From Roseibacillus sp. (GTDB lineage Bacteria; Verrucomicrobiota; Verrucomicrobiia; Verrucomicrobiales; Akkermansiaceae): a stretch of 64,000 nt of DNA. How positions within the stretch are numbered: position 1 is the first letter of the stretch; the number at the start of each line of letters is the position of its first letter. Under the pieces are notes generated by a model. The model was not told the origin of the DNA and made no database searches. It saw nothing but the letters and a program-made list of their open reading frames with translations. A program made the translations under genes and the position numbers. Positions 20,991-46,726 of the stretch are shown here, in pieces. Location of the stretch: contig JBPOGI010000001.1 of assembly GCA_051251855.1 (NCBI GenBank), forward strand, positions 1,056,001 through 1,120,000. Direction: 5' to 3'.

Positions 20991-21066
20991 TTTGAGTAAT
21001 TAAAGAAGTTGGAACTCCCTAAAACACACGCTTTGCAGAAGTCGCTCTGCGCGTATTAGGAGAGGT

Positions 21067-22407: not shown

Positions 22408-22526
22408 GTGGCGTTCTTTGTACAAAAAACAAGTCGTTAAAGAATCGTAATGTGCGTCTGCAATAAATAAGAGCGTGAAAAAAAATCGGAAGAAATCTTC
22501 ATAACTTAGCGTAAATTCTCAATATC

Positions 22527-23855: not shown

Positions 23856-23890
23856 CAACTCACACCAGACTTGTTCTTTTACTCAAAAGA

Positions 23891-24886: not shown

Positions 24887-27800
24887 CTCGATACGGAAGC
24901 GGAAGAACTGTTTTGATTCTGCTGGGAGAGGGATTTCCAAACGATAGACATCGTTCCCGACATCGTTGGCTTCGGAACCGGATACTCTTTGAAATGAAAG
25001 AGCTAAGTCAGATTGGGTGAGAAGAGCGAAGCGAATGTCCTCACTATAAAGAGAGGGAAACTCAGTCTCCAGTTGCAGGTTGCCGTTCGAGAGCTTCGAG
25101 ATCACGATACAAGGAGGAGTGAGAGCAATAGCTGGGCCGGTTGGTGAGCTCCCATTGAGCGTTGGGTTGGTGTCTTCGAGGAGTTCTTGCAGATTGGAGT
25201 AACCATCACCATCGGCATCGTCAAAGGGGTCGGTTGGTTGCCCAAAGAAAAAGAGCTCCCACTCGTCATCAAGTGCATTAAAATTGCTATCAACAAACGA
25301 TGGTCGCGGAACGACAACAAGCTCGGCGGAAATGACATCAAGAGAATTACCCAGTTTTGCGGGAAGATGGTCACGATCAGTAAAGGCGTGGACTTCTAAC
25401 TCGGCACCCACGGGAAGAGGCTCTTGAAAGAGGTAGGGAGTGCCATCACTGCGGAAGAGTTCGTAGGGAGTGCCACCTGCGGTGAAGAGCAGAGGAATCT
25501 TCCCTTCCTGGAAGGAGTCCGGACCAACTGCAAGAGTGAGAGTCGTGGTGGGCCGAGCAGGGAAGGCAGCCATAAGTTGTACCAGAAGAGCGTCAGCTGC
25601 AGCAAACTCAGCTGCAGATAAAGTGATATCTTGTGCGTAGCCGACTCCATTCTCTGAACCTGGCAATGCAATCTGTCCGTCGATGGAGCTACTCGTTGCT
25701 TCTAGTTGAGCAATGACTCCTCGCAAAGTGTCGAAAGGGTTTGGATAAAGGCCCGGGGTCGAGTTGGGATCGACGAAGTCAGAGTAGAAGGCGATCTCCG
25801 AGGAGAGTTTTTTCATTGCTGTCACCTCTGGAGTTGCCGAGAGGATGAGGCCTTTGAGAATTCCAGCATACACGTCTTGCAGAAGATGCCCTGAGTCGGA
25901 GGGCGAAATCCAATCTTGCAGAGCTAAGAGCTCGTCTTTTCCAACTGAAAAGGGATGTCCTGCGGTTGCCTCGGCCAAGGGCGTAGGAATCTCGGCATCA
26001 CGAAAGGCGGTCAAACTCAGTTGGCTATTGAGGGGCAAAGTTTGACGGTCTTGCAGATACTCTTGTATGAGTCTTTCGAAGAGAAGAAAGGCGAGGCTAT
26101 CGTCGGGGGTGAGGCTTTCATCAATAGTTGACCGAGTAAGCGAGAGGTAGTGATTCTGCGCTGCGGAGAGCCAATCGGCAGCAGCGGTGGCTGTTGAGCT
26201 CACGCCGTCGTATGTGAAGTCAAACTCTCCCACTGTTTGATGAGGAACAGGAATGAGCGCAACGAGTTCGCGCCCATGGTCCGAAGTGACCACAGGCTGA
26301 ATGGGAAAGGTAGGACTCGTTGAAACGATGACGAACAAGTCGCGATCACTTGCAGGGACTTTTTCGAAAAGAGCGGTGGGATGAAGGTAGCCTGAGATGT
26401 TGCGAGTGACCTCATGGCCAAGAAGTGTTCCATCGAGCGCATGTAGATAGAGGTCAGCGGGGGATTCGGAAGCTCCATCCGGATAGGCGAGCCCAGGAGT
26501 GTTGAGGGCAGTCGGTGCAAAGGGTGTGACGGCGAGATCGAAGACGTTTTGAAGGTTGAGAGAGAGCGGGGTAGTAGGGGTGCTATTGATGTCGGCAGGG
26601 TCGGTTCCGAGGAGAAGTTCATATAAGTCATCGACGGCATCGAGGTCTGCGTCTTTGCCTGCGGTGGGGTCGAGTCCGTTGGCAATCTCAACAAAATCAG
26701 GAACACCATCGCCATCTGAGTCGAGGTTGCCGGGCTCCCCGTAGTATGAGTAGCTCGCTTGGTAGATCGGGGAGCGCCCGCCGCTCGCACTGGTGGCATA
26801 GTATTGCAGAGTGAATGGCGAGAGGGTGTCTCCCACTGCCTCAATGGCGGCACCCGGAGTGGCGCTTTGCCAATCACTATCACCTGCAAAGCGATAGAAG
26901 ACTGAGGTGCTTCCGTCTACGGTGCTGAGGACGGGCGAAACTTCAGTGGTGAACTTTCCAGGCAGTGGAGAGACCGATACTTGGGGGGGGAGCTGTCCGA
27001 CGAAAGTTTGCAAGCTCAAGAGAGAGACGGCGCCTTCGCTTTGATTACCGAGGACATGTGTCGGGCTGGTATCAGGACTGAGGGTGAGGGCACTGCCTGC
27101 GCTTAGACCTCCAGTCTCGGAAGTGAATGTTTCCGGAGTAACCATAACGTTGCCCCCAGATGTGATGCTGAGAGAGCTCGTCCAGTCTGGGACCTGAATG
27201 GTTTCAATCAGTTTAGCCCCTGGGTCGATGAGAGGTTCGCCGTCGTAGAGAAGGATATTGGTGAGAGCAACTTGGCTACCCACTGCTGGCAAGGGAGTGC
27301 TGCCAGTTTGCTTCCATTCATTACCATTGTGCTCGTAGTCCAAAGCAAGGTTAGCGGCATCACCGAAAGGTCCCGCAAGAAGTGACATCTTGTTGTCATT
27401 CAGTGCCACGAGACCAGTGAATCGCGAGTCCAAAGGTGCGACAAATCCTTGCCCAGCGATTGGAGCTCCGCCTGTCGTTAAAGTGTAGAGACGAGCATAT
27501 TCGAAACCATCATAGATAACGAGAAAGGAGCCTGAACCGAGTGGTGAGATGCTTGCGATGGGCGCTTCTAAAGTGTGAGAGACTTTGGCGAGGAGGCTGA
27601 GGCCATTGCTACGGCTCACTTGGAGAACAGGACTACCCTTCACATAGATAAGGACGTGTTGCAAAGGTGAACCGCTAAAGGAGCCTGCAAGAAACTCCGC
27701 GTTTTGAGGAACGTAGATGGTTTGTTTGTTCGAGAGGACGGTGTTGCTATTGTATACCCGAAGACGGGGGGAGGACCCTCTCAGCATGGCAGCGTAGAAC

Positions 27801-28396
27801 TGAGAGCCTCCTTCGGTATAGCGATAGCGCGTTCCTCTTTCAGCAACGAACACCGGATCGGCAGTGAGGACTTCGGAGGTGTCGCCAGAGAGGGATCGGA
27901 AGAGATGGCGTTGGTCTTCGTCGGGGGCATTGTTCTCACTGGTATGAACGACTAAGTCCATCAAAGCAGGGTCATTGCCTGCTACGGGGAGCTCTAACGC
28001 AGCTACTGAGCTGGGTGCAATGCCGCTGGGAAGGATTTGTTCCGTCGTGCTTGTCGCGGCAGAGAGAGAGGGTTCGACGAGGACCATCTGATTCGCGAGG
28101 CGACCAGCCAAGACGACAGCGTCTTTTCCTGCGACACGAATCGGCCCACAGGTCATGGCATCGACCGATGGGAGGCCACTAGGGCGGGTCTGACTCCATT
28201 GCACGCTGCCGTCAGGTTGCTGAAATGCGACACGATAAAGTCCGTTAGCTCGCTGGACGAAAATAGCATCGAGGTCACCATCGGCATCGAAGTCGCCATA
28301 GCCGGAGATTTCGGCAGGAGTAACGATCACTTGTCGCGAGTTGACAGCGTGAAGAATTCCGCAAGTCGCAAAGAGGAAGAGAAAAGGAGAGCGCAT
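24878..28396 (-). CDS. large secreted protein (FG-GAP-like N-terminus, FN3-associated domain, DxDxDG Ca-binding repeats, conserved C-terminal domain)
   Basis: Signal peptide; GDFDADGDLD; VSVSPLPG.F; DSDGDGVPD, DADGDGYSN; ends KQFFRFRIELE. Confidence 0.75.
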   Translation of the reverse strand: MRSPFLFLFATCGILHAVNSRQVIVTPAEISGYGDFDADGDLDAIFVQRANGLYRVAFQQPDGSVQWSQTRPSGLPSVDAMTCGPIRVAGKDAVVLAGRLANQMVLVEPSLSAATSTTEQILPSGIAPSSVAALELPVAGNDPALMDLVVHTSENNAPDEDQRHLFRSLSGDTSEVLTADPVFVAERGTRYRYTEGGSQFYAAMLRGSSPRLRVYNSNTVLSNKQTIYVPQNAEFLAGSFSGSPLQHVLIYVKGSPVLQVSRSNGLSLLAKVSHTLEAPIASISPLGSGSFLVIYDGFEYARLYTLTTGGAPIAGQGFVAPLDSRFTGLVALNDNKMSLLAGPFGDAANLALDYEHNGNEWKQTGSTPLPAVGSQVALTNILLYDGEPLIDPGAKLIETIQVPDWTSSLSITSGGNVMVTPETFTSETGGLSAGSALTLSPDTSPTHVLGNQSEGAVSLLSLQTFVGQLPPQVSVSPLPGKFTTEVSPVLSTVDGSTSVFYRFAGDSDWQSATPGAAIEAVGDTLSPFTLQYYATSASGGRSPIYQASYSYYGEPGNLDSDGDGVPDFVEIANGLDPTAGKDADLDAVDDLYELLLGTDPADINSTPTTPLSLNLQNVFDLAVTPFAPTALNTPGLAYPDGASESPADLYLHALDGTLLGHEVTRNISGYLHPTALFEKVPASDRDLFVIVSTSPTFPIQPVVTSDHGRELVALIPVPHQTVGEFDFTYDGVSSTATAAADWLSAAQNHYLSLTRSTIDESLTPDDSLAFLLFERLIQEYLQDRQTLPLNSQLSLTAFRDAEIPTPLAEATAGHPFSVGKDELLALQDWISPSDSGHLLQDVYAGILKGLILSATPEVTAMKKLSSEIAFYSDFVDPNSTPGLYPNPFDTLRGVIAQLEATSSSIDGQIALPGSENGVGYAQDITLSAAEFAAADALLVQLMAAFPARPTTTLTLAVGPDSFQEGKIPLLFTAGGTPYELFRSDGTPYLFQEPLPVGAELEVHAFTDRDHLPAKLGNSLDVISAELVVVPRPSFVDSNFNALDDEWELFFFGQPTDPFDDADGDGYSNLQELLEDTNPTLNGSSPTGPAIALTPPCIVISKLSNGNLQLETEFPSLYSEDIRFALLTQSDLALSFQRVSGSEANDVGNDVYRLEIPLPAESKQFFRFRIELE

Positions 28397-28417
28397 GATA
28401 TCGGAGTAGGGCTTGAG

Positions 28418-31400
28418 CTAATTTTGATAAAAAGGAATCGTGAGAGGGTTGGTCGGAATGGTGCGATCGACCTCACCATCCTCTCGAAAGCGAACGAGGA
28501 GATAAACATAGGTGTAGCCCTCGACCACGCCTTGAGAATCGATGAGATAGATCCCGAACTCTTTGGGTGACTCTGGGTCTTTGACGATGGTGATGAGAGG
28601 GTCTTGAATCTCGAGATAATCCTTTCCACTCTCGTTCACCTCATGGGTGCGGAGCTTTTCTAAAAGAGGAGCCACCTGCGCTACATCCCCAGAGACGAGA
28701 GGGAAAAAGGCATTGGGAACCTGATAACGATAGAGAGTGAAGGGGAGGAGAGACTCTCCTTCCTCGGTTGTGAATATATTATAACTGTAACCTGGGGAGT
28801 CTAAGATCCGGGAGGGGATGTGATTAATCCCGCCATCAGAGAGGATGCGACCTGACTCCACTTCACTTTCTTCCTCATAGTCGACGGAACCAATCTTAAT
28901 CATCGCCGCAGGATCGGTAAAGTTACCGACGTCAATCATCTGGGCCTTCACTTCGGGGATGAAGTCTTCGTCAATAGGAGGGAGCGAACGCGCAGGCCAG
29001 GGGACTTGGGGGCCTGTGGGTGGTCCAGACTCGGTCCAAGTAAAATTGACGATATTACTGGGTTCTCCGACGTCCCCCGCTGGGGACATGGACTTAACGT
29101 AGAACTGATATTCGCGACCTGGAAGAAGGTCGACGGTTAACTCGTATTGGCCAGGGAGGGCAGGATTCCCAAAGTTGCCTCCAACACGACCTGTTTTGAA
29201 ATCGTGATGCTGCACGCCATTGATGAGCTCTCCAGTTTGTCTTTCAACAGTCACCAAAGCTCCTCCATTAAACGGATTGATGTAGCTGAACGAAATGATA
29301 CGCGGGGCAAGTTCCGTTGAGTATTCCATCTCGATGGAGGAGAGGCCGTCACCGATACCCACGAGGAAGCGCTCCACCCCATTGGGTTCGCAACTCCACC
29401 GCAAGGTTCCTTGAGGAGAATTGGTGTCTCCGGCATGGTCCACTTGGGCGAGAAGGGGAGTGGGCATCTCGACTCGACTATGCATTCGAATGCAACGCAC
29501 AAGGCTCATGGGCGAAGGATTGCCGTGGCGATCGAAAAGCTGTAAAAAGTAACAGACTACTGAGGCATAGGCAGGGTGGTCATAGTCTGGGACGGTGACT
29601 TCGCTTCCGACAGGATCGACGATGCCTTGCTCAATCATGACTAGCGGCCCAGCGTCAATACGCTCGTAGAGTTTGTATTCTTGAGTTTCGGGAGTCGCGG
29701 TGAAGGTGAATTCAATCGGATTAGGATCTCCGTTGGGTTTGGTTGGATTATGGAAGCCCGACCCGCCACCAGAGACGTCAAAGGCTTCTTCGGTGATGAC
29801 TTCGACTTGGCAGACTTCGAAGCAAACTTGCAAGGCAATAGGAGGATCCATATTTGGGTAGTCGATCCCAGCAATAGAGAAGCGCTCGCAAACTTTTTTT
29901 CCTTGTTTGTTTTTGGCACAGATTTCCACCATCGCCTTAGAGTCTGGCTGGGTCTGTTTATAAGGCACAAAGTGATGGACATTGAGGTCGGTCGCCCCTG
30001 GTTTGAGCGCTCTTTGACCAATGACTTGTTCGCCAATCACGACGCCGTCATTAACGAGGATCAGCTTAACTTGCAGAGAGGCAATGCCGGGGTCGACCGC
30101 ATCAACTTTGAAGATGAGTGGGACACCTCCCTTTCGAGTGCCCGTAAAGAGGTCAAGCAAAGGCGTAAGTTGAGGAGTTGCCACCTCACCCACTTTTTTG
30201 ATTTCAGGACAAAGTTGAGAGGTCAGCACTGTTCCGCCAGCCTGAACAGGGCCTTGCCTATCACGCAGCACGCCCCAACCGGGAGCAGAATGCCCTGACG
30301 GCAGGTCCCCGCACGAGGTCTCCAAAACTGCTTTCACTGAATACCATACCGTGACGCCCGCTTGCGCAGGAAGAGCAGGGGCTCCTGTCCCACCATCGAG
30401 AAACTCATAGTCTTCCACACCACTCACATGCGGGATTTCACCAGAAACGAGATGGCCTGCTTCTATTGTAGAATGATTCACGGCGAGCTTCATCTCTTCG
30501 AGGCTATCCCAACGATAGACGAGGTAATGACTTGGCTCAGGAATTGATGGCGGAGGGGACCATGAGACGGCGAGACGGGTGCTGCCGCTATTAGTCGCAG
30601 TGTTGTAACTGTATTGATTTTCCACATCGACAGCCACAGGCACGAGAGGGGGATGGCGATGACAGAAGGTGACGATTGTTCCATCGGACACCGCTGCAGG
30701 ACGTCCAAGGATATCTAAGGTAGCAACGAAGTAATAGAGCTGCTGCCCATCTTGAAACGCTGGCTTGTTCTCCGCCTGCGCTTGGTTGTCGTCAAGGATG
30801 AAGTAAGGATCTGGGACGGGAGGGTCAGCACCAGGATAAAGCGGAATGGTAGCAGCCTGAGTGAGAGTAAGGAGTTGAGTCGGCAGGACTGGGAGAAGGT
30901 TGACCTGTTGAACAAGGCTAGACTGATTAACGAGATAGTTATTCAGCTGAGAAGGTGTTGGAGGGGTAGTGTTATGGTTGTTTGACTCCGCAAAAGTCTT
31001 TTCCATACGATAGACACCATATCCATAAGTGAGGGGCGTATCGCGTTTCAAGTTGTCGGGAACTCCCCAGCGTAGGGCGACGTTGAGGTGACCTTTAGGT
31101 GAGTCATCAGGAATGACAACGGGTGGCCCCGGCGCCGTGATGGGTGAGGGATTATTGCGGTCCAAAGTAATGCGACCGACGACTTGGGAAAATGCGGTTC
31201 CGGGAGTATTGCTTCCATCGGGTTGAGTGCGAACCTCGAAGGTCGAAACCGCGGAGGCCATGGGCACAAGCGCCCCAGTCCCCATGGCTACCGCGACAGC
31301 GGGTTCGGTCCGCGACAAAAAGTAGAGTCGATTGAAAAGCTCAGGTTCTTGCGCTGTAATTTGGAGGAGAGCCGACAGCTTATTTCCGAGTGAGAGACCT

Positions 31401-31765
31401 ACTGCCGGCATGACATCACCGAACAGTCCATCGAGGGTTTCATCGACCATAGCTTTATTTGCTAAAACGGGAGGGAGACTATCAATGCGCGCATCCAGAA
31501 AGACGGAACGGGTGGTCGGTTGCACGAGGGCGACTTGGGAAAAAGCATGACCCGAATTGGGCTGACCATTTTTACGATAGATTGCGTAGGTGCGCCCCTG
31601 AAGGAGAGATGTGTCCTGAGCCTGCCAGAGCAGCCAGGCATGGTTGCCATTCTCAACATAGGTGGTTCCAGCAAGAAAAAGGAGCGAGTCCTCGGGTGCT
31701 CGGTTCTGAGAAAAACTACTGCCTAAGCAACTCAACCAAGCGAGAAATATGTAAAAGACCTTCAT
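28418..31765 (-). CDS. large secreted beta-sandwich/FN3-like repeat protein (hypothetical)
   Basis: Signal peptide MKVFYIFLAWLSCLGSSFSQ; repeated W...Y.VYR...Y.V strand patterns; start could be 31765, 31771 or 31780. Confidence 0.7.
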   Translation of the reverse strand: MKVFYIFLAWLSCLGSSFSQNRAPEDSLLFLAGTTYVENGNHAWLLWQAQDTSLLQGRTYAIYRKNGQPNSGHAFSQVALVQPTTRSVFLDARIDSLPPVLANKAMVDETLDGLFGDVMPAVGLSLGNKLSALLQITAQEPELFNRLYFLSRTEPAVAVAMGTGALVPMASAVSTFEVRTQPDGSNTPGTAFSQVVGRITLDRNNPSPITAPGPPVVIPDDSPKGHLNVALRWGVPDNLKRDTPLTYGYGVYRMEKTFAESNNHNTTPPTPSQLNNYLVNQSSLVQQVNLLPVLPTQLLTLTQAATIPLYPGADPPVPDPYFILDDNQAQAENKPAFQDGQQLYYFVATLDILGRPAAVSDGTIVTFCHRHPPLVPVAVDVENQYSYNTATNSGSTRLAVSWSPPPSIPEPSHYLVYRWDSLEEMKLAVNHSTIEAGHLVSGEIPHVSGVEDYEFLDGGTGAPALPAQAGVTVWYSVKAVLETSCGDLPSGHSAPGWGVLRDRQGPVQAGGTVLTSQLCPEIKKVGEVATPQLTPLLDLFTGTRKGGVPLIFKVDAVDPGIASLQVKLILVNDGVVIGEQVIGQRALKPGATDLNVHHFVPYKQTQPDSKAMVEICAKNKQGKKVCERFSIAGIDYPNMDPPIALQVCFEVCQVEVITEEAFDVSGGGSGFHNPTKPNGDPNPIEFTFTATPETQEYKLYERIDAGPLVMIEQGIVDPVGSEVTVPDYDHPAYASVVCYFLQLFDRHGNPSPMSLVRCIRMHSRVEMPTPLLAQVDHAGDTNSPQGTLRWSCEPNGVERFLVGIGDGLSSIEMEYSTELAPRIISFSYINPFNGGALVTVERQTGELINGVQHHDFKTGRVGGNFGNPALPGQYELTVDLLPGREYQFYVKSMSPAGDVGEPSNIVNFTWTESGPPTGPQVPWPARSLPPIDEDFIPEVKAQMIDVGNFTDPAAMIKIGSVDYEEESEVESGRILSDGGINHIPSRILDSPGYSYNIFTTEEGESLLPFTLYRYQVPNAFFPLVSGDVAQVAPLLEKLRTHEVNESGKDYLEIQDPLITIVKDPESPKEFGIYLIDSQGVVEGYTYVYLLVRFREDGEVDRTIPTNPLTIPFYQN

Positions 31766-31862
31766 GACCATTGCGTTCACTAGGGCTTACCCGTTTGAAT
31801 CTCCGGTCTGACAGTCAGGAGTGAGAAAGTTGAGAAAAGCGACGATTCCTCGACTTCAGCCG

Positions 31863-32738
31863 TCAATATACCTGGGCCTCAACCCCTGCGGGCAGAGCCG
31901 TAATAAGCTCAAGCTCCAAAGAAACAATCGTCGCCCAAGCATCGGCAGTAGTGGCATCTGGAGCCGAAACTACAACGGTGCGCAGGGCAGGGGGGCTTTG
32001 ACCTGAGAGAGGTGAGAGGAGATGATTATCCTTCCCCGCCGCACTCAGCCGATGCCCTGATCCTGATGAGACAGCTAAGCTGCGGCTTTGCAGGGAGAAT
32101 GACTGGAGAACTCTCTTTGTTGCTGAAGGATGTCGAATCTCGATTTCGAAAGGGCCTCCTATGGCGCGATACTCGCCCAGATTCACTAAGGCAGAGTGCA
32201 CCCCTTGGCTTTTTAGGAAGAGAGCCAATCGGTCGGTGGCGAATCCCTGAGCAACTGCGTTGAGGGTGAGCTGAGTCCCATTGAGTTCAACTCTACTGGG
32301 ACTGATTCCGACTCTCGCAAAATCCACCTTCCTGCGTGCTTGAACTCGTTCCACCTCGGTCGGCTCATTGCCCAATCGATTCCTTTCACTCAGCCAACTC
32401 CAGTAGCTTTGAACTGTAGGATCAAAGAGGCCCTTGCTGAGGCGGTGAAGGCTGCTGCATTTTGCTAGAATCTCTAGCAGTTCATTGGAAGGTGACGACG
32501 AGCTACCCGTCGAGTTCAAAAGAGCGAGTTCGGACGAAGGCTCATAGAGAGAAAGTATCAGCTCAAGCTTCCTGACCTCCGCCGTGATCGCCTTGTTGAG
32601 ACTACGATCAGAGTGATAGCGAATACTGACTGGGTTATGAAACAAGACTCCTTTCCAAATGGTCTCAGCTACCTTTTCACCGCATCCGTAGTAGAACGGA
32701 GTGGTGGCGAGTAAGGGCAGCAGTCTTCGACGCGTCAT
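31863..32738 (-). CDS. apbE: FAD:protein FMN transferase ApbE
   Basis: TRRRLL Tat-like signal with lipoprotein Cys; SEL..LN, G.FDPTV, LNAVAQGFATD, SSG, H.LSP.SG, ADAWAT. Confidence 0.9.
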   Translation of the reverse strand: MTRRRLLPLLATTPFYYGCGEKVAETIWKGVLFHNPVSIRYHSDRSLNKAITAEVRKLELILSLYEPSSELALLNSTGSSSSPSNELLEILAKCSSLHRLSKGLFDPTVQSYWSWLSERNRLGNEPTEVERVQARRKVDFARVGISPSRVELNGTQLTLNAVAQGFATDRLALFLKSQGVHSALVNLGEYRAIGGPFEIEIRHPSATKRVLQSFSLQSRSLAVSSGSGHRLSAAGKDNHLLSPLSGQSPPALRTVVVSAPDATTADAWATIVSLELELITALPAGVEAQVY

Positions 32739-35437: not shown

Positions 35438-36196
35438 AGCGGAAACAAAAGAATTGAGCAAATAAAATGAGTCCTGAGAGCGAACTACCGGACTCTAAGC
35501 GCTCTCTGTGGCTAAAATCTTCGCCTTTTGCAGAGCTAGGACACAGATAAGGAACTCTAGGACAATTATATCGAGGGTGAGAATTCTTGAAAAATTGTCG
35601 CTTGAGTGCGTAAGCCGCAAAAACGCCAGTTCTATGAGGGTCAAAGTCTGATTCCAAAAGCCACTCGAAGGTGGCGGTATCTAGATAATCCGCACTAGTC
35701 GCGAAACATCATGCATTCACGTTCAGGAGTTCTGAACAAGGCTGGGCAAAATTGAGCAAAAGATTCAGGCAGGCACTTCTTGAGCTGAAACAATGGCTTC
35801 GCCAACATTATCAACATCTAGTCGACGAGTTGCGACATTGCATCCGATCGATGCGTTTCTTAACAGCATTAACAGCAGTCGCAATGGCCTTGCACTTGCA
35901 AACGGTTCGCGAAGCCAATGTGATTTCTCCAAAGGTGTCTAAAGCCATGCCATAGCGCAGTTGTGATTAACTGCACCAGACACCGGCGACGCTAATAATG
36001 CGAACGTGATTCATGGCGGAACATTCAGGAAGAGTGTGGAGCCGTGGTAAGAACTGAGTGCGGGGACAACACCGAATTCCTTAAGAGCCTTTGAAAGCAG
36101 ATTGGAACTGGAGGAGACACTTCGGAAGAGGGGAAATTAAATTGAGAGCGCTTGAGGAAAAGAGGAGCCCACTTCTTGGCTATTCGCCAATTATCA

Positions 36197-36224
36197 ATTC
36201 CGCATTACATTTATTATGCGAAGT
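36197..36224 (-). other. dif-like Xer (tyrosine recombinase) site
   Basis: Minus strand ACTTCGCATAA-TAAATG-TAATGCGGAAT: 11-6-11 layout, left arm ends in CGCATAA like the E. coli XerC arm; intergenic; lies in the GC-skew switch zone. Confidence 0.7.
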
Positions 36225-36395
36225 TATTAAAGCGGCAGTTGGATCAGAGGTGTAGCGAGAAACCCTTTTAGAATCGGCGCTCAGGGCTCTTTCCGTCAAC
36301 TCGTCCTGAAGCTGTCATAACATTACGCCAGCTTTTCGCGCACCCAAGTAGAGCTTGTCTTGTGAGTGGCTTTAACGTCAGGTGTCTGGGCTCAC

Positions 36396-37190
36396 ATGAA
36401 AGTTGTCGCTATTGCGAATCAGAAAGGCGGCGTTGGCAAAACGACGACTTCAATCAATCTCTCTTCCGCACTCGCGCGTGAAGGTCAGCGCGTGCTGCTC
36501 ATCGATCTCGATCCTCAGGCCAACGCGACCAGCGGACTCGGATTTCCTGCGGACGAGCATGAGTCAATTTACGCCACGCTGGTCGGTGATGACTTACTGG
36601 AATCCAAGATTCTGACTACGAGTCAGGAAAACCTTCATCTGATACCTGCTGAGATGGACTTGGCCGGTGTCGAGGTCGAATTGGTTCGATTTGACAACCA
36701 CCTGACACGCTTAACCGAAGTGTTCGAGAACTCCGAACGCGTTCAAGCGGCCTACGATTACTGCATTCTAGATACACCTCCGTCACTGGGAATTCTCATG
36801 ACCTCAGCACTGGCGGCTTCAGATGAAATTCTCATTCCGCTGCAATGCGAGTGGTTTGGCCTCGAAGGCTTGGCAAAAATCACTCGGGTTGTGAGTCAAA
36901 TTCGGGAAGCAGGCGTGAACGAGAACGTCTTTATCGAAGGGATTTTGATGACTATGTATGACGGTCGGACGAACCTCTCGCGGAGCGTAGTCGAAGAAGT
37001 TCGTAATTTCTTCCCAAGTGAGCTCTACAACACTGTGATTCCACGCACCATTCGTTTAGGCGAAGCTCCCAGCCACGGGCTGACCATTTTTGACCACGAT
37101 GGCAGCGGAATCGGCGCCCGAGCTTACCGCGAACTCGCAACCGAGTTCCTTAGGCGCCACGAGACCGAATTAAGCGCTGCTGAGCAATAA
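36396..37190 (+). CDS. parA: ParA/Soj family ATPase
   Basis: NQKGGVGKTTT, DLDPQANAT, DTPPSLG, IPR.IRLGEAPSHG; ATG at 36396. Confidence 0.95.
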   Translation: MKVVAIANQKGGVGKTTTSINLSSALAREGQRVLLIDLDPQANATSGLGFPADEHESIYATLVGDDLLESKILTTSQENLHLIPAEMDLAGVEVELVRFDNHLTRLTEVFENSERVQAAYDYCILDTPPSLGILMTSALAASDEILIPLQCEWFGLEGLAKITRVVSQIREAGVNENVFIEGILMTMYDGRTNLSRSVVEEVRNFFPSELYNTVIPRTIRLGEAPSHGLTIFDHDGSGIGARAYRELATEFLRRHETELSAAEQ

Positions 37191-37454: not shown

Positions 37455-38495
37455 ATGATTTTTTCAAAGTTTTTTGGTCTGTTGTCGAATGACATCGGCA
37501 TTGACCTTGGCACCGCCAACACCTTGGTGAACGTCAAGGACCATGGAATCGTGCTTCGCGAACCCTCTGTGGTCGCCGTGAAAGCAGGAACAAACGAGGT
37601 GCTCGCCGTAGGTGATGATGCGAAACGGATGCTAGGCCGGACGCCTGGTAATATCGTCGCAATTCGCCCCCTTAAGGACGGTGTCATTGCCGACTTCGAG
37701 GTCACTGAAGCAATGTTGCGTCACTTTATCCGCAAGGTGAACAACAAGCGCCGCGCACGCCCACGGGTGGTGATTGCGATTCCTTCAGGAATTACCGAGG
37801 TAGAGCGCCGAGCAGTCAAAGAGTCTGCAGAGCAAGCAGGAGCCCGTGAGGTTTATCTTATCGAGGAGCCCATGGCTGCGGCAATTGGAGTCGGACTGCC
37901 AGTGCAAGACGCCTCGGGAAACATGATTGTAGATATCGGCGGCGGCACAACGGAAGTGGCTCTCATTTCTCTCTCGGGAATTGTTTATGCACGAAGTGTT
38001 CGCACCGCTGGCGATGAGCTCGACGAAGCCGTCATTCAATACATGAAGCGTGGCTACAACCTCATGATCGGAGAACGCACCGCCGAGGATATCAAAATCC
38101 GTATTGGTTCTGCTTCTGCCTTGCCAAAGGAAATCAGCATGGAAGTGAAAGGCCGCGACCTCGTTTCAGGTCTCCCCAAAACCGTGACCATTACCTCCGA
38201 AGAAATTCGCGAAGCGATGGCCGATCCCTTGGCCACTATCGTCGATGCCGTTCGAACGACTTTGGAGCGATGCCCACCAGAACTTGCCGCCGACCTCGTG
38301 GACCGCGGATTGGTTCTTGCAGGTGGTGGCGCTCTGTTGAAAGGCCTCGACAAGTTACTACGCGAGGAAACGGGACTACCGGTTCATATCGCGGAAGACC
38401 CTTTAAGCGCGGTAGCAGAAGGAACGGGCAAGGCGCTGAGCGAACTCGCCTTCTTGAAGCGTGTTACCAATACGGATTATCACTCCACTCGCTAA
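37455..38495 (+). CDS. mreB: rod shape-determining protein MreB
   Basis: [45 protein letters not shown]. Confidence 0.98.
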
Positions 38496-38525
38496 AGAAT
38501 CGCCTGACGCGTCTCCGAAAGCTCT

Positions 38526-39362
38526 ATGAAACCACTCACGCTACTTGTTTTGCTGATTTTTCTCGGCGCAGGTACTTGGGTACTCACTTGGAGCCCAATG
38601 ACGGTCCGCAAAGTTCAGGAAACCTATTTCCGAGCGATTAGCCCTTTTCTAAAAAGCGGTTCTAATATTGAAAAATTCAGTCGCGAATTTGTTCGTGAAG
38701 TTGAGCACTCGGAGAATCTGCAAAGAAAGCTCGAAGCTATTCAGTCTGACTATGGTGAACTCAAGATCATTGAAGGCCGCTTTCGAGAATTAGAGCGCGA
38801 GAACATTCAGCTCAACCAAGCTCTCGGATTCAAAAAGCGCACGACCTTCGAAGTGAAGGCCGCCAAGGTCATCAAACGTCAACCGTCAACGTGGTGGGAT
38901 ACTTTAACGATCAACCGAGGAGAAAAAGACGACTTGGGAACTCAGCTCACGGTACTTGCAGAAGGCGGTTTGGTGGGGCGCATTGATCAAGCATTCGAAG
39001 ATGTAGCGAACGTCATTCTAGTGACTGACGAGAGCTGCCAAGTATCGGTCTATGTTGAAGGTTCTCCAGAGAAGGGCATTTTGAGTGGAGAGCCTGGGGA
39101 ATACGGCACCACTCCCCTTCTCCGTTTGCGCTATTTGAGCCGCAACGCAGTTATCCAACAAGGAATGAAGGTTTTCACCACGGGGCGAGGAGGGATTTTT
39201 CCTCCTGATATTCAGGTGGGAACAATCACTGAAGTCATCTCTGGAAGCTACGAGAGTGAGGCTCTTGTGAAGCCGAGCGTAGAGTTACAAAATTTGGCCG
39301 TTGTCTTTGTCCTCGCCGGAGACCAATCGGCGGCCATTAAGGAGGAAGAGCCCGAAGAATGA
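38526..39362 (+). CDS. mreC: rod shape-determining protein MreC
   Basis: N-terminal TM, coiled coil with EN..L, GLVGRI, TTG.GGIFPP.I.VG. Confidence 0.93.
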   Translation: MKPLTLLVLLIFLGAGTWVLTWSPMTVRKVQETYFRAISPFLKSGSNIEKFSREFVREVEHSENLQRKLEAIQSDYGELKIIEGRFRELERENIQLNQALGFKKRTTFEVKAAKVIKRQPSTWWDTLTINRGEKDDLGTQLTVLAEGGLVGRIDQAFEDVANVILVTDESCQVSVYVEGSPEKGILSGEPGEYGTTPLLRLRYLSRNAVIQQGMKVFTTGRGGIFPPDIQVGTITEVISGSYESEALVKPSVELQNLAVVFVLAGDQSAAIKEEEPEE

Positions 39363-39937
39363 TTCGCTATCTCCTGACGGTTTTGGTGCTGCTGTTAGTT
39401 GCCTTTATTCTGAGGCAATTCATCCCAGTGTTTCCCGAGTTTCATCATGTGCGCTTCTTTCTGGTTCCACTGATCTTCATTTGTGCCGCAGTGACCCTTG
39501 ATGTCATCGGGATGCTTCTGCTTTCCTTCGTCTGCGGGCTTCTCTGGGATGCACAGCATATCATTATGCCCGTCGTGGGCGATCCCGAGGTTTACCCAGA
39601 GATTGCAGCGACGCTGAAGTTTGGATACTCGATCTTTCTCTTCGCAATCGCTGGATTCGTGATGCAGGGGGTACAGCCTCTTTTTCGTGAGGGCAAATGG
39701 CAGGTTTCGGTCTTGGTGACGGGAGTCGCTCTCTTTCTTTACCTCTTCGTTGAAATGATGCTTCTCTCTTTTGTACGAGGTCGGGTCGCATTGACGGGAG
39801 ACACCTTGAGGTTTATCTTTTTCAGTTCGGTTCTCACCATGTTGTTCTCTCCTCTTGTCTTTCTCGTTTTATTCAAACTCGCAGATTCGTTTCAGTATCG
39901 AATGAGCTACAAAGGCCTGCGCAAAGGCCATCACTAA
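39359..39937 (+). CDS. mreD: probable rod shape-determining protein MreD
   Basis: Small polytopic membrane protein with GLLWD motif between mreC and pbp2; ATGA overlap. Confidence 0.75.
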   Translation: MIRYLLTVLVLLLVAFILRQFIPVFPEFHHVRFFLVPLIFICAAVTLDVIGMLLLSFVCGLLWDAQHIIMPVVGDPEVYPEIAATLKFGYSIFLFAIAGFVMQGVQPLFREGKWQVSVLVTGVALFLYLFVEMMLLSFVRGRVALTGDTLRFIFFSSVLTMLFSPLVFLVLFKLADSFQYRMSYKGLRKGHH

Positions 39938-39940
39938 AAT

Positions 39941-42034
39941 ATGGAATCACGTTTTCGGTTTCGTCTCTACCTCCTCACCGCGCTCATTTTGTTGGGGACG
40001 GTTTCATTGCTGCATCGCTTGCATCAATTTCAGATCAAAGATCAGCATTACTACATTCGTAAAAAACCCGGCTTTAGTGTGGTGGCTATTCGCGAGCCAG
40101 GCGTTCGGGGTGAAATCAAGGACCGCAATGGAGTCCCGCTGGCCGAGAATTATCGCATCTACGAGTTGGTCGTCAACTTGGGCGAGATACGAGAATCATG
40201 GGTCCGCCAATGGAAGGTTGAAAAAGCCAATAGCGATGAAGAGGATACCAAGCCTCCTGAAATCGATGAGATTGTCGAACAGCTCATTATCCCTCGCCTC
40301 AAAGAACTAGGGGTTGAACCAAGGTTGAATCGAACAGCGATCAAGACGCACTTCATTACCCATGGCGACCTCGTTCCTTACGTCTTTCCCGGGGAGTTGG
40401 ATTTCGATCAATTCTCGCGTCTCGCAGAGCACAAATTGGGTCTACAAGGAGTCTATGTGAACTCGCGGCCCCAGCGCCGATACCCATTAGGCACCTTGGC
40501 TGGCCATGTGGTAGGTTACGTTCAGCAGTGGAAAAAAGGAACTTACACCGCCGCAGAGAAGGCTGAATTCGCCCACTATTTTGGAGATAGCAAGGGCGTG
40601 AGTGGAGTCGAAAAAGCTTATAACGATATTCTCACCGGGCAACACGGGAAGCGCAGCCTCTACAAAGACGAAAAGGGACAGATCATTGGGCGCACAGTAG
40701 ATTCCCGCCCCCCTGCCCAAGGCGCTGATTTGACCCTTACGATTGACGCGGGAATTCAATGCCTGACTGAAAACATCCTGAGAAAGGCTGGTCGTGCAGC
40801 AGCAGTGGTCATGGACGTCAACACTGGTGAAGTTCTCGCCCTAGCCTCTGTCCCAAACTACGATCCCAACGACTACATACCCTCCCTTTCGCAAGCCTCT
40901 GCCGACTACTATTTTCAAAATAAGGGTCACCCTTTTACCAACCGCGCAGTCTCGAGCTTCATGTCTGGCTCTACGACAAAGCTTCCTGTTGCCTTGACTG
41001 CTGCGATGAACGGCCAAGTCGGCTTCGTCGATAACTGCCGTGGCTATGTCGCCTTTGGGCCCCGCACGAGGATCCACTGCCACAGGACTTCTGGCCATGG
41101 TTCTTTAGGAATGGAGTCTGCAATCCAGCGTTCTTGCAATCCCTACTTCATGGACTTGGCCAACAAAATGGGTCGTCGGAAGATTGTCGAAGGCTTTTCA
41201 ATTCTCAATCTTGGACGACGAACAGGGGTCGGCCTTCCCGACGAAAGTCCCGGAGTCCTGCCGGGCAGCGAGCTGTGGCTTCAAAGACAAGAGCCAGGCT
41301 CGATTGTCACCGCTTCTCAACTTGCTCAAACTGCTATCGGCCAATGGCACATGGAGGCCACCCCCCTTCAGATTTGCGCAGTCACTGCCTGTATCGCTAA
41401 TGGAGGAAAATACTACCGTCCTCGCCTCCTCAAGGAAGCAAAGCTGCAGAATGATATTATCGAACAGGATCGCCCCCAATTAGAGGTCGATTTAGTTGCC
41501 GAAAAGGGTGTTTCCCCTTCGGATATCAAGCGAATCCAGCGAGGTATGTGGCTCGCAGCCAACCAAGCAGGCGGAACCGCACAAAGAGTTACCGTGCAGG
41601 GGTTTATCGCTGCAGCCAAAACTGGAACCGTTCAGCTCGGGACAAAAAACAATCGAAAAAATAACGCTTGGGTGACCGCCTACGCCCCCTTCGACAAGCC
41701 TCGCTACGCAGTTACCGTCTTTGTTGAAGGAGGAGGAAGTGGCGGAAAAGTAGCAGGTCCCCTCGCCCACATGCTCTTACGTGGAATTGCCGCCACCGAG
41801 AAGGGCTTGAGGCTGCCAGTGAAGCGAATGGGAAAATTCGCTGGTCATTTCGATGCAATCGAAGAGATTGAGCTTCCAGAAGATTCACTTCTCTCCATTA
41901 CCTTGGAAGAAGAGGGAGAGACGGCGGATACGATCATTGAGTCGTCTGACGAAAGTCAGCCAGTGAAAGTGAAGCCTCGCATTATCCCTCTGCCAGGTAC
42001 TGGCAGAGACCAATCTGAGGACGCAGGCGAGTAA
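39941..42034 (+). CDS. mrdA: penicillin-binding protein 2 (class B transpeptidase)
   Basis: RGEIKDRNG, G.SGVEK, catalytic STTK, SCN and KTGT motifs; mre operon context. Confidence 0.9.
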   Translation: MESRFRFRLYLLTALILLGTVSLLHRLHQFQIKDQHYYIRKKPGFSVVAIREPGVRGEIKDRNGVPLAENYRIYELVVNLGEIRESWVRQWKVEKANSDEEDTKPPEIDEIVEQLIIPRLKELGVEPRLNRTAIKTHFITHGDLVPYVFPGELDFDQFSRLAEHKLGLQGVYVNSRPQRRYPLGTLAGHVVGYVQQWKKGTYTAAEKAEFAHYFGDSKGVSGVEKAYNDILTGQHGKRSLYKDEKGQIIGRTVDSRPPAQGADLTLTIDAGIQCLTENILRKAGRAAAVVMDVNTGEVLALASVPNYDPNDYIPSLSQASADYYFQNKGHPFTNRAVSSFMSGSTTKLPVALTAAMNGQVGFVDNCRGYVAFGPRTRIHCHRTSGHGSLGMESAIQRSCNPYFMDLANKMGRRKIVEGFSILNLGRRTGVGLPDESPGVLPGSELWLQRQEPGSIVTASQLAQTAIGQWHMEATPLQICAVTACIANGGKYYRPRLLKEAKLQNDIIEQDRPQLEVDLVAEKGVSPSDIKRIQRGMWLAANQAGGTAQRVTVQGFIAAAKTGTVQLGTKNNRKNNAWVTAYAPFDKPRYAVTVFVEGGGSGGKVAGPLAHMLLRGIAATEKGLRLPVKRMGKFAGHFDAIEEIELPEDSLLSITLEEEGETADTIIESSDESQPVKVKPRIIPLPGTGRDQSEDAGE

Positions 42035-42067
42035 GTCGCTTGCAAACAACGAATTTCAAAGACACAC

Positions 42068-43654
42068 ATGTTGAAACAAATCAAAAGAGCCTTTGGCTTC
42101 GGGGAAGTTGACCCCCGCCAAGGTAATACCATCGTCATCAACGCCGAGACCCTCGAGCGCCGCGTCGCGCTGCTCGAGAACGGTCAGTTGGAAGAGTATA
42201 ATATTGAACGCGAGGGCGAAGTGAACCTTGTGGGCAGTATTTTCAAAGGCCGCGTCAAGAATATCGAGCAAGGCCTCAAAGCCATGTTCGTTGACATTGG
42301 CATGGAAAAGAACGCCTTCCTTCACTTTTGGGACGCCATCCCAGCTGCACTCGACAACTCCATGGAGGAAATTCAGCGCAGCGACCGGCCGCGCAAGAAG
42401 CAAAAGAAAATCAGCTCCAAAGATATTCCGAGTATCTATCCCATTGGCTCGGAAATCATGATTCAAGTATCCAAGGGGCCCATTGGTACCAAGGGACCTC
42501 GCGTCACCACCAATGTCTCATTGGCAGGCCGTTACCTTGTGCTGATGCCCTTCTCTGAGCAGTTCGGTATTTCTCGCAAGATCGACGACCCCAAAGAGCG
42601 TGATCGCCTCCGGAGCATCATGCAGAAGCTCGATGTCCCTGAAGGAATGGGCATCATTATGCGTACCGTGGCTCAAGGCCAACGTGCGCGCCACTTTATG
42701 CGGGACCTCGACATGCTTCTCGATCAGTGGGAAGCGGTCGAAGACAAGCGCGACGCCAATCCTGCGCCCGTTTGCGCCTTCCAAGAACCCGGGATCATTG
42801 AACGCACCGCGCGCGACTTCCTCACTGAGGACATCGACAACGTCATTTGTGATGACCTCGAGACCACCGAATTGATGCGCGGCATTGCTGAGAAAATTTC
42901 TCGGCGGGCGAAGCGTCGCATTCATCACTACCCCACTCGCTCAGCCATTTTCGACAAGCTCGGAGTGCAGAAGCAGATCGATGAAGCCTTTCATCGCCAA
43001 GTGTGGATGCCCTGCGGGGGCTACATCGTGATTGATGAGACTGAAGCTCTCATTGCGGTGGATGTAAACTCGGGTCGCAACCGGGGTGGCAAGGACGTCG
43101 ACAAGACCTTGTTGCAAACAAATATCGAAGCGGCCGAAGAAGTGGCCCGCCAACTTCGCTTACGTAACATCGGCGGATTGGTTGTCGTCGACTTCATCGA
43201 CATGCGTCACCGCCGTGATCAGATGGCGGTTTACCGCGTTATGAAGGATCGCATGAACCGTGATAAGGCCAAGACTCAGGTCCTCCAGATTTCATCGGTC
43301 GGCCTCATGGAGATGACCCGCCAGCGTCTGAATGAAAGTCTGCAAGAGACACTTTCGGAGCCTTGTGAATATTGCGAAGGTCGTGGCCGCGTGAAGACTT
43401 CCTTTACGCTTAGTGTCGAAATTCAGCGTGCACTTAACACCGTGATTGCACGTCATCAGGAGGAAGCGGGCGACCTCGTCGTCATCGTTCATCCTGTCGT
43501 ACTCGAACGCTTCAAAAAAGAGGATTCTCACATCCTCATGGACCTAGAGAGAAAGCACACTGGCCGCCTCATTTTCCGCACCGATTCGACGCGCCATCGC
43601 GAGCGCTACGACATCATCGATGCCGCTACTGAGAAGTCCTACGCTTCGGCTTAA
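42068..43654 (+). CDS. Rne/Rng family ribonuclease
   Basis: S1 domain (AMFVDIG), KGPRVT, TEALIAVDVNSG, QLRLRNIGG..VVDFIDM, EMTRQR, CEYC.GRG. Confidence 0.95.
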   Translation: MLKQIKRAFGFGEVDPRQGNTIVINAETLERRVALLENGQLEEYNIEREGEVNLVGSIFKGRVKNIEQGLKAMFVDIGMEKNAFLHFWDAIPAALDNSMEEIQRSDRPRKKQKKISSKDIPSIYPIGSEIMIQVSKGPIGTKGPRVTTNVSLAGRYLVLMPFSEQFGISRKIDDPKERDRLRSIMQKLDVPEGMGIIMRTVAQGQRARHFMRDLDMLLDQWEAVEDKRDANPAPVCAFQEPGIIERTARDFLTEDIDNVICDDLETTELMRGIAEKISRRAKRRIHHYPTRSAIFDKLGVQKQIDEAFHRQVWMPCGGYIVIDETEALIAVDVNSGRNRGGKDVDKTLLQTNIEAAEEVARQLRLRNIGGLVVVDFIDMRHRRDQMAVYRVMKDRMNRDKAKTQVLQISSVGLMEMTRQRLNESLQETLSEPCEYCEGRGRVKTSFTLSVEIQRALNTVIARHQEEAGDLVVIVHPVVLERFKKEDSHILMDLERKHTGRLIFRTDSTRHRERYDIIDAATEKSYASA

Positions 43655-43808
43655 GAACGAGGCGGCACCTTATCCTTTAATTATAGGACTCAGTTCGATT
43701 CGCTTCTTTTGGCGCTTCGCTTCTGGGTCCTCTTTTTTGCTGGGAGGCTTCCGCATTTTGGGACTCTCCGAGTTCGTAGACCTTCAATCGACAACGAAGA
43801 AAAGAAAA

Positions 43809-43883
43809 TGGTAGGCCCACCAGGAATCGAACCTAGATCTACGGTACCGGAAACCGTCGTTCTATCCATTGAACTACAGGCCC
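43809..43883 (-). tRNA. tRNA-Arg (anticodon CCG)
   Basis: 75 nt GGGCCTG...GGGCCTACCA; anticodon arm ACGGT-TTCCGGT-ACCGT; GGTTCGATTCC T arm. Confidence 0.95.
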
Positions 43884-43896
43884 TACGCGGGCGCGG

Positions 43897-43926
43897 AGAA
43901 TGCACTGCTCTCCCTGCTCCTGTCAA
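43897..43926 (-). promoter_or_regulatory. sigma70-type promoter of tRNA-Arg
   Basis: TTGACA-N18-CATTCT followed by a GC-rich discriminator just upstream of the tRNA. Confidence 0.6.
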
Positions 43927-43997
43927 TCGACAATGAGCCCTTTAGTTGCTTCTCTGCTGGACGAGGCGGCCTAGATTCGGGAACCTTCATTCGACGA

Positions 43998-45827
43998 ATG
44001 ATTCTCACCAATCCATGGGGCCTCCTTGCCCTTCTCGGAATTCCTGCGGTCCTGCTGATTCACTTTCTGCAAAGACAAGCTCAGGTCATTCCCGTCTCCA
44101 CTCTTTTTCTTCTAGAGCAAACCCAGCGCGAATCTACTTCAGGCCGTCGCTTTGACCGCCTCACCAACTCCATCCCTCTGTGGCTCCAACTTCTGATGGT
44201 GCTCTTGCTGACCTGGCTACTCGCTGAACCACGTTACAAAAGTAAAACATCGACTCAACAAGTCGCCATCGTCATCGACTCTTCGGCCTCGATGTCAGTC
44301 TTCCGTGACGAACTCAAGACGACCCTAGAAACAGAACTCCCCAACCTCAAGGGCCCGGCTTCGAAGCTCCAAATTTATCTCCTCACTTCTGATCCTGATG
44401 AACCGATCCTTTACTCTGGCGACGACCAAAAGGAAGCCTTAGCCGCTATCGCAGAATGGAGCCCTACTGCAGGGGCGATGGACCCGAACGCGGCCCTGCG
44501 CCTTGCTCGTTCACGAATTCGTAGCGAAGGCCTCCTCATCTATCTCACCGATAATTTGGAACGCACCGAACTCCCCTTTGACGCTCAACTTCTCGCCATC
44601 GGAAAGCCCACCGACAACCTCGGTTTCACGGGCCTCAGCTTTTCCGAAGACGGGAAGTCCTGGCAAGCCACCGTCCGCAACTATTCCGACACTCAAGCAG
44701 AACGCGGCTGGCAGGTGCTATTTCCCGACGGGTCTCTCTCCGAAAAGCGCGAGCTCGTCCTTTCCGCCGATGGAATTAGCACCATCACTGGCACCTTTCC
44801 CACTGGCGCAGACTACCTCACCGTCAAACTCGACTCCGACTCCTTAGCTCTCGATGACCACCTCCCTATCATCAACCCTCAGCCCAAAACCCTCAATACT
44901 CTCTCCGAACTCCCTCCCAAGTTCAATGACTTCGAAAAACGCTTCCTCTCCTTTTTCCCCAATCTCGAAACGAAAACAAGTTCCACTCCCGACCTCACTC
45001 TTTCTTCCTACGATCCTCTTCTCCCCATCATTCCGGAGACTCATTCAATCATCACCATTAACGAGACCGCTCGCTCGCGAAAATTCCTTTCCGGCGGCAT
45101 CGTCTCCGAACCTCACCCATTGACCCAAGGCCTCAATTGGCAAGCCCTCCAGTCTCGCGAGACCATCCCCTTCCCTGTTACGTCTTCGGACAAAGTTCTT
45201 CTCTGGCAAGGTCAGCGTCCTCTCATCGTGCTTCGTGAAGTTCTCGCTATCGAAGGCGAAACCTCCTCTAGCCCCAAAGAGCATCTTATTTTCAACTTCG
45301 ACCTCTCACTCTCTAACGCTCTCAAGCTGCCTTCTACTGTCATTCTCCTCCATCGCTTTACGAGTGGACTTCGCGAACAAAAAATAGCTTTCGAAGCTAT
45401 CAATACCGAGACGAACCAAGAACTCGACCTCGCCCACGATCCTTCTCAGCAACTCATCATCAAACAACTGGCGGCAGAAGGAGCCTTTCTAACCCGCGAA
45501 ATGCCTCTTAATGAAATCCTTCACACCCCTAGTCAACCTGGCTATTTCGAAGTGTTTCAAGGCGAGACCCTCCTCCTCAAATCAGCTAGCCATTTCGCAG
45601 ACACTCGGGAAGCTGACCTTCGCAAGGCAGCCACTCAAAACGAACTGACTCGTCTCACGGCTTCCGCAGTGGACCAGAATACCAACGAGGACAAGTGGTG
45701 GCCGGTTTGGGTCCTCCTCACCATTACGGCCCTTCTTGCCGCATGGCACTTCACTAAGACGAAAGCCAACGAAGAGGATACCAAGGAAGCCACATCCATT
45801 GGTCCAAGCTCTCACCCCACGGGTTAG
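43998..45827 (+). CDS. BatA-type double-TM N-terminal domain plus VWA protein
   Basis: NPWGLLALLGIP..LIHFL, LL..LLAEP, MIDAS IDSSASM, LTD, C-terminal TM; ATG at 43998. Confidence 0.85.
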   Translation: MILTNPWGLLALLGIPAVLLIHFLQRQAQVIPVSTLFLLEQTQRESTSGRRFDRLTNSIPLWLQLLMVLLLTWLLAEPRYKSKTSTQQVAIVIDSSASMSVFRDELKTTLETELPNLKGPASKLQIYLLTSDPDEPILYSGDDQKEALAAIAEWSPTAGAMDPNAALRLARSRIRSEGLLIYLTDNLERTELPFDAQLLAIGKPTDNLGFTGLSFSEDGKSWQATVRNYSDTQAERGWQVLFPDGSLSEKRELVLSADGISTITGTFPTGADYLTVKLDSDSLALDDHLPIINPQPKTLNTLSELPPKFNDFEKRFLSFFPNLETKTSSTPDLTLSSYDPLLPIIPETHSIITINETARSRKFLSGGIVSEPHPLTQGLNWQALQSRETIPFPVTSSDKVLLWQGQRPLIVLREVLAIEGETSSSPKEHLIFNFDLSLSNALKLPSTVILLHRFTSGLREQKIAFEAINTETNQELDLAHDPSQQLIIKQLAAEGAFLTREMPLNEILHTPSQPGYFEVFQGETLLLKSASHFADTREADLRKAATQNELTRLTASAVDQNTNEDKWWPVWVLLTITALLAAWHFTKTKANEEDTKEATSIGPSSHPTG

Positions 45828-46100
45828 CTCAGAATTTCTCGCTTCGTATCTTTCTCTGTCCGCTTTTCCGTGAAGCGAAGTGCCATAAACAGGCCTTTTT
45901 CGCAGCGGAAACGACGGAATCGGACATTGGTATGTAAGAAAATCAACAGGAGAGGAGCTTGAGCTGACTTGTCCCAAGGGGGATTTGTCTTTGAGGCGGG
46001 GATATCTTGGGCTCTTCCCAGCACGACATGCTGCCTCGCCCAAGCTTTTTTAGTTCGGTTTTCAATTTAATCTGATAGGTTGAAGCGATCAGTTCTTTAA

Positions 46101-46697: not shown

Positions 46698-46726
46698 AAA
46701 ACACCCCATTAAAACCCGATCCGCCC

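Follow-up and report, generated by a model that had tools for sequence, protein, structure and literature searches.

Our analysis of a 64,000-nt window (G000:C1:1056001-1120000), taken from the 4.96-Mb, 13-contig assembly (G000) of a marine Roseibacillus-like verrucomicrobium whose DnaA is 79% identical to Roseibacillus persicicus DnaA, identified what is very probably a true dif at a true replication terminus, beside a displaced dnaA, together with a testable origin candidate for the family. The original prediction, namely that the site is dif, that the region is the terminus, and that oriC is uncoupled from dnaA, is supported by evidence that does not depend on skew polarity: (i) the likeness of the site to a predicted dif, (ii) the presence of xerC-, xerD-, and ftsK-like genes, and (iii) the occurrence of parS, gidA, and an oriC-like element at the opposite skew switch. 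The features concerned are given below in coordinates of the window, that is, of the whole 64,000-nt stretch.

4188..31992, + strand: six GGGNAGGG octamers pointing toward the site (4188, 10482, 11697, 13059, 23707, and 31985)
5234..6718, + strand: dnaA, the sole copy in the assembly, scoring above the TIGR00362 cut-off
6853..7950, + strand: dnaN (beta clamp)
36133..36697, no strand: G-to-C skew switch at third-codon and intergenic positions, with its maximum at 36259 and within 10 counts of it across the interval
36197..36224, - strand: dif-type site, 11-6-11, ACTTCGCATAA-TAAATG-TAATGCGGAAT, with arms symmetric at 8/11 positions
36396..37190, + strand: parA/soj-type ATPase gene, matching a Firmicutes origin-cluster ParA at 48% and split from parB
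37455..42034, + strand: mreB, mreC, an ORF of 192 aa where mreD would be expected, and a penicillin-binding protein gene
40711..59280, - strand: three GGGNAGGG octamers pointing toward the site (40711, 45168, and 59273)

The site has the structure of a dif, with imperfect inverted 11-bp arms flanking a 6-bp spacer; its letters had been given correctly, and what had been left unsaid is its location on the minus strand. A dif had already been predicted in Verrucomicrobia (PMC3025954), and the site is identical at 25/28 letters to the one listed for A. muciniphila, ACTTCGCATAATATATGTAATGCCAAAT (Kono 2011, PMC3025954 supplement 2), the mismatches comprising one spacer letter and two right-arm letters. 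Unlike that predicted A. muciniphila dif, the site lies 171 nt upstream of parA, which is a genus-level arrangement, and 30 kb from dnaA. A search for the best dif match in G000 returned the 28-mer as a single copy, with a runner-up carrying 9 mismatches. A generic proteobacterial dif core was set aside, as it had 4 mismatches at the site and many equal matches, a family-specific sequence being needed; a phage search with the site gave only matches of E 3-9.

A degenerate dif core pattern, derived from the earlier matches, was present in 65/174 genomes of the order and single in 64 of these 65, with 1 match in the control. The pattern was unmatched in 18/18 g8, 24/27 g5, and 27/27 f5 genomes, where the dif sequence presumably differs. 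Among the genus relatives, five of eight carry dif as a conserved island in otherwise unconserved DNA, 170-190 bp upstream of parA (the island was seen in G001, G003-G006, and G016). The site is therefore single-copy, non-coding, and kept in kin, except in the three genus relatives (G002, G007, and G008) in which the dif core was not found. Conservation reaches position 36227 in all 7 aligned copies, which is three letters (36225-36227) beyond the 28-bp site, and the arm extended in this way may resemble that of phage P1 loxP. The recombinase genes that the original prediction proposed to look for are present in G000, together with a translocase gene: there is an XerC-like gene at C1:751 kb, an XerD-like gene at C11:193 kb, and an ftsK-like gene at C10:306 kb; the two Xer proteins score above the subfamily cut-off and slightly below the TIGR equivalog cut-offs (318 vs 335 and 302 vs 330). 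With the known dif/XerCD/FtsK system, the site thus shares its 28-bp length, the 11-6-11 organization, single-copy and non-coding status, position at a G-to-C switch, and accompanying xerC, xerD, and ftsK-like genes.

The base composition of contig C1 agrees with the claim that the plus strand is G-rich to the left and C-rich to the right of the gap that holds the site: 1.097 Mb of G-rich sequence (about +0.2) is followed by 0.80 Mb of C-rich sequence (about -0.18), and the four hand counts on 60-mers offered for the claim are all exact. C1 turns from G to C within the window, the all-base cumulative skew reaching its maximum at window 40690, on a plateau, and the skew from third-codon and intergenic positions, as delimited by a crude ORF caller, reaching its maximum at window 36259, only 35 bp from the site. 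All six octamers first reported proved to be real and to point toward the site, as do three that had been overlooked (+11697, +13059, and -40711). Over C1 as a whole, GGGNAGGG occurs +201/-5 to the left of the site and +6/-135 to its right, with the polarity flipping between window 31985 and 40711. The caution that this polarity is not independent of the skew was justified, because 96% concordance was observed and 93% is expected from 5-mer composition. The site accordingly lies at the G-to-C switch, where the octamers converge, and stands opposite gidA in all eight single-contig relatives with a dif match, the gidA-dif separation there being 0.95-0.99 of the half-genome (several genome sizes were rounded). 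We hold with high confidence that the site is the chromosomal dif and the region the replication terminus, at which XerCD is predicted to act.

The GC skew is very strong genome-wide (about 0.2), yet a leading-strand gene bias is absent: 1541/3235 ORFs (47.6%) lie on the G-rich strand and 52.4% on the C-rich strand, so that the strong skew is not driven by gene orientation. The median reported for this gene-strand share in Verrucomicrobia is 49.9% (PMC11040001).

Skew alone cannot tell an origin from a terminus, and independent markers were therefore sought. Within the large contigs, the skew changes from C to G just once, at C7:41.7-42.0 kb. Five parS-like sites were found in G000 with a parS search motif, a consensus also being given in PMC10197239, and four of them are at C7:72.9-75.2 kb, in and around gidA (mnmG); the parS-gidA link recurs in relatives among the matches listed. 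Moreover, gidA/parS marks the change from C to G in the sampled skew of G012, G033, and G029, the last of which shows a skew of -0.17 to -0.20 on both flanks of dnaA and its switch at gidA/parS, while the weakly skewed G176 and G193 have an octamer polarity that agrees with a gidA/parS origin. An inverted skew in G176, raised by a local G-to-C trend at gidA, was rejected on its conventional octamer polarity. The G-rich strand carries the main ribosomal-protein/fusA cluster (C6:15-31 kb), rpoB, and gyrBA. Taken together, the parS/gidA position at the C-to-G switch, the placement of gidA opposite dif, and the genes on the G-rich strand indicate that the polarity is conventional and that the window is the terminus.

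In many relatives, gidA carries parS-like sites within its coding sequence, at a constant spacing of 831 bp (G000:C7:72853-75188, L001), and one parS-like site falls inside the small gene found downstream of rnc. The downstream flank of gidA was rejected as an origin, as it is occupied by a small conserved gene that itself contains a parS-like site. parA, parB, and parS occupy three separate places.

The candidate origin near the C-to-G switch is the following.

G000:C7:42985-43198: candidate oriC, ~200 bp, non-coding, upstream of ribD (C7:41929-42984)

This ribD-upstream gap is located 30 kb from gidA and the four parS-like sites. Its features are an AT-rich tract and TTC repeats, a variant of the DnaA box along with additional boxes, and two spaced GTTCC motifs. 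On sequence, the element conforms to the rule available for the unwinding system in PMC8287927, namely a DnaA box with ≤2 mismatches within 16 bp of ≥3 NAN triplets and beside an AT-rich tract: its box has 2 mismatches and is accompanied by a 2-bp spacer and four NAN triplets, and a 40-bp segment of its AT-rich tract is 82% A+T. The element is single-copy and sits at the C-to-G switch, 1.1 kb from the neutral-site switch in G000. In relatives, the skew minimum and the element are at 958534 and 958570-958790, respectively, in G044, where the minimum falls on a three-box cluster upstream of ribD, at 2050293 and 2050536 in G156, and 4 kb apart in G119; they are 17 kb apart in G150 and 21 kb apart in G105, whose skew is flat. 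Standard DnaA-box clusters were sought in G000, and nothing was found at either skew switch.

The element lies upstream of ribD in G000 and in 7/7 genus relatives with a ribD match, and an HMM built from 8 genus members has one strong match in G000. This model also locates the element by gidA in held-out genomes, even where ribD has moved, as in G012, which has the element at 1.293 Mb, near gidA/parS, and ribD at 2.02 Mb; a wider origin model had no match anywhere in 0.94 Mb of sequence flanking dnaA or dif (61 loci). A fixed-spacing pattern, run on 48 whole genomes chosen for having few contigs, matched 21/48, with 0 in the control. Sixteen of the 21 matches share a contig with gidA and are no more than 17 kb from it (14/19 without the two training genomes), 4 are on a contig other than that of gidA, and 1 is near dif. 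The pattern was unmatched in 8/9 genomes of genus g3 and in 13/13 outside the family. The g3 form of the element, aligned separately (G044 is excluded from alignment A4), carries several boxes and is kept by gidA in G041, G044, G045, G048, and G050; no convincing element was found in G082. The G045 pattern match 2.6 kb from dif was dismissed as chance, because the G045 element adjoins gidA, and a second match in G124 was likewise taken as chance.

From these sequence features, we consider the C7 element quite likely to function as oriC. The terminus could also be correctly placed with the origin lying elsewhere near gidA/parS, or being DnaA-independent, in which case the element would be a promoter or regulatory site: it heads a gene in most genomes, the G000 boxes differ from TTATCCACA by 2 letters, and the octamer polarity on C7 is mixed up to about 70 kb, closer to gidA than to ribD. 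This is unlikely, however, given that the element keeps to gidA/parS where ribD has moved away (G012), that the neutral-site switch is so close to it, that it bears several boxes in genus g3, and that the DnaA Walker A/B and domain IV helix-turn-helix motifs are intact.

While the candidate oriC is on C7, dnaA and dnaN end 29.5 kb and 28.2 kb from dif, respectively, and 171 nt separate the site from the conserved parA ATG at 36396, values that match the ~30 kb and 171 bp first claimed. No DnaA box with ≤1 mismatch was found upstream or downstream of dnaA. The former origin gene cluster is broken up in this order, and its other genes are scattered in G000, with recF at C7:279 kb, gyrBA on C9, rpmH at C7:528 kb, yidC at C7:407 kb, mnmE at C1:1.445 Mb, and parB at C1:764 kb. 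As an origin marker, parA is of little use here, since it is split from both parB and parS. The 192-aa ORF has no family match, and the name mreD derives from its position alone. Porin, PepSY-TM, and ApbE genes (window 31863-35398) adjoin dif and are missing at the corresponding place in G001; this block is probably a later insertion at the terminus. Further to the left, a BlaI-type repressor domain is encoded at window 21067-21816, and the repetitive stretch that follows it, near 21150-21370, is also matched by contigs of other organisms.

The position of dnaA varies widely among relatives. Its separation from gidA is 0.22-0.92 of the half-genome (median 0.66) in 19/19 single-contig relatives, which are not independent, six of them belonging to genus g3; its distance from dif is 350-590 kb in 8/8 single-contig relatives with dif found, and 74 kb in G147. 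Within the family, G155 is an exception, its dnaA being separated from the element and from gidA by only 55-63 kb (G155:C1:998346-1063694). In G000, dnaA is at least 0.87 Mb from the C7 element by any contig path, and about 2.4 Mb from it if the chromosome is symmetric as in the relatives. The uncoupling of dnaA from oriC is thus borne out, but it is not peculiar to this genome: it extends across the sampled Verrucomicrobiales, with G000 as the extreme case. The wide spread of dnaA positions suggests drift by rearrangement, and the closeness of dnaA to dif in G000 (within 30 kb) probably represents the far end of such drift, not a fixed design. In a synteny check, the genes upstream of dnaA in G001 and G005 had their G000 orthologues on the far side of dif, at a distance of 33-37 kb from it, a hint that dnaA is at the terminus in part of the genus.

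A more ambitious reading, which we find doubtful, is that Verrucomicrobiales possess an undescribed origin anchored to parS in gidA (AT tract, GAA repeats, TTATTCACA boxes, and paired GTTCC) in combination with selection, in Roseibacillus-like lineages, for a terminus location of dnaA, dnaN, parA/soj, and mreBCD. If that selection were real, the gene dose at the terminus would double only at the end of a replication round, acting as a cell-cycle gene-position clock and offering a natural test of whether dnaA dosage timing matters, and the undescribed origin type would include the gut genus Akkermansia.

It is very unlikely that the site is dif at the terminus and the proximity of dnaA a misassembly of G000. 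Public contigs cover window 4500-24400 in overlapping pieces with breaks near 15.76 kb and at the 20.8-kb tRNA, and no 31 bridging letters were found at either break, in runs that may be the source of the assembly itself. These breaks fall at two short repeats. Over 20 kb, the public-contig depth is flat per contig, with small opposite trends in X1 versus X3 and X4 (X5 covered 7/30 bins, and small-share runs were left out of the comparison), and yielded no usable ratio of origin to terminus. The depth is, however, about equal across both breaks in X1, X3, and X4. Moreover, the skew is G-rich throughout, the G001 and G005 genes upstream of dnaA map past dif in G000 as described above, G005 retains TPR and exbB genes behind dnaN, G001 retains window 22.5-31.8 kb beside dif, and G147 has its own dnaA in the vicinity of dif. 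A misjoin between dnaA and the site is, therefore, unlikely.

The gap at 35399-36395 is ~1 kb long, as originally described, but is not wholly free of ORFs, holding part of one 117-aa ORF without a Pfam match. The divergence of genes from it, raised as a sign of an origin, holds locally (30/38 window ORFs of ≥150 aa, 74/121 within 100 kb, and 211/388 within 300 kb). The gap contains 3 DnaA-box-like 9-mers (shuffle P 0.008, for motifs picked after viewing), whose counts in five relatives are 0, 0, 0, 1, and 1. No conserved DnaA-box cluster with an unwinding element was found in the gap, the origin model had no match there, and parS and gidA are found on C7, where the element is separated from the gap by at least 0.87 Mb whichever way the contigs are joined. 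That the gap is oriC with a C-rich leading strand, the dif likeness being chance and dnaA, dnaN, and parA lying near the origin as usual, is extremely unlikely, for while the local ORF divergence, the 52.4% of ORFs on the C-rich strand, the three box-like 9-mers, and the nearby genes would fit it, the site is the predicted dif of the family and single-copy in 64/65 matched genomes, it is the opposite switch that has parS, gidA, and the oriC-like element, the gap boxes are unconserved, dnaA is 350-590 kb from dif in the eight single-contig relatives, and the G-rich strand is the one that carries rpoB and the ribosomal-protein cluster.

With the window as the terminus, forks would start at the C7 element, on which DnaA, a diffusible protein made from its terminus-located gene, would act in trans by binding TTATTCACA-type boxes, spreading from them over the adjoining trinucleotide repeats, and melting the AT-rich tract. 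The origin region would be organized by an SMC and by ParB bound to the gidA parS sites. The forks would meet near window 36-41 kb, where the G-rich octamers may steer FtsK to dif, and XerC and XerD may resolve chromosome dimers. The origin function of the element, the direction of the forks, and the action of XerCD are all read from sequence in this scheme. At the terminus, dnaA, dnaN, parA, and mreBCD would be the last to double in copy, presumably with a small effect in slow growers.

Several known systems resemble parts of this arrangement. In the Chlamydiales, as described for Waddlia (PMC2878342), dnaA is likewise unlinked to the cumulative GC-skew minimum; these bacteria carry two dnaA copies, whereas the single dnaA of G000 is found together with dnaN at the terminus end. 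The E. coli oriC is also separated from dnaA (PMC8287927) and, like the C7 element, lies in the gidA region, although the distance in G000 is far larger. The box, spacer, triplets, and AT-rich tract of the C7 element are shared with the DnaA-box and DnaA-trio system (PMC8287927); its triplets are GAG/AAG, as opposed to the 3'-GAT-5' DnaA-trio consensus given there, and, unlike that system as presented in the same source, it conserves two further spaced GTTCC motifs. Methylacidiphilum, of the same phylum, has a similar predicted dif (PMC3025954), and skew analysis placed its origin 250 nt and 6.6 kb away from dnaA (PMC2474590, PMC4210602); the link between dnaA and the origin is kept there, and the uncoupling is thus not phylum-wide. 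According to SkewDB, >80% of chromosomes have dnaA within 5% of the skew shift (PMC8941118). Some mouse-gut OMM12 strains, a collection that includes A. muciniphila YL44, have dnaA away from the origin (PMC10197239); the main account of that study leaves the species with a displaced dnaA unnamed and presents neither an origin sequence nor an order-wide survey. In the literature searched, the origin element, the order-wide uncoupling, and a terminus dnaA are undescribed; DoriC, the Ori-Finder 2022 indicator-gene table, and the PMC10197239 supplement were outside this search and may hold an Akkermansia origin.

The candidate provides the family of Akkermansia with a concrete, testable origin, none having been given in the literature searched. 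In this group, dnaA would mislead origin placement: the records of 8/19 single-contig relatives start at dnaA, which is 0.49-1.86 Mb away from the probable origin region there, and dnaA fragments are assigned to the origin by GRiD (PMC7852909), so that growth-rate and strand-bias work on the order can be mis-oriented. In G000, dnaA and dif would show equal coverage.

Several further observations concern the assembly itself. No rRNA operon or 16S rRNA gene is assembled in the 13 contigs, and overlaps between contig ends consist of cassette repeats only, from which no contig order was obtained. An Rfam search returned two tRNAs and nothing else. A selenocysteine tRNA was called at G000:C1:329166-329259, and ten same-strand tRNA genes, several with anticodons duplicated elsewhere in the genome, cluster at G000:C10:114076-115599, which may be a mobile tRNA array. 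Two integron integrases score above the TIGR02249 cut-off (G000:C7:1-7313, L003, and G000:C6:12910-14325, L004). The one on C7 adjoins an array of at least 11 repeat copies with 300-775 bp spacing, which is common to C2-C5 and the start of C10 and lies ~36 kb from the origin candidate; such integron-type repeat arrays are the likely cause of the breaks in the G000 assembly.
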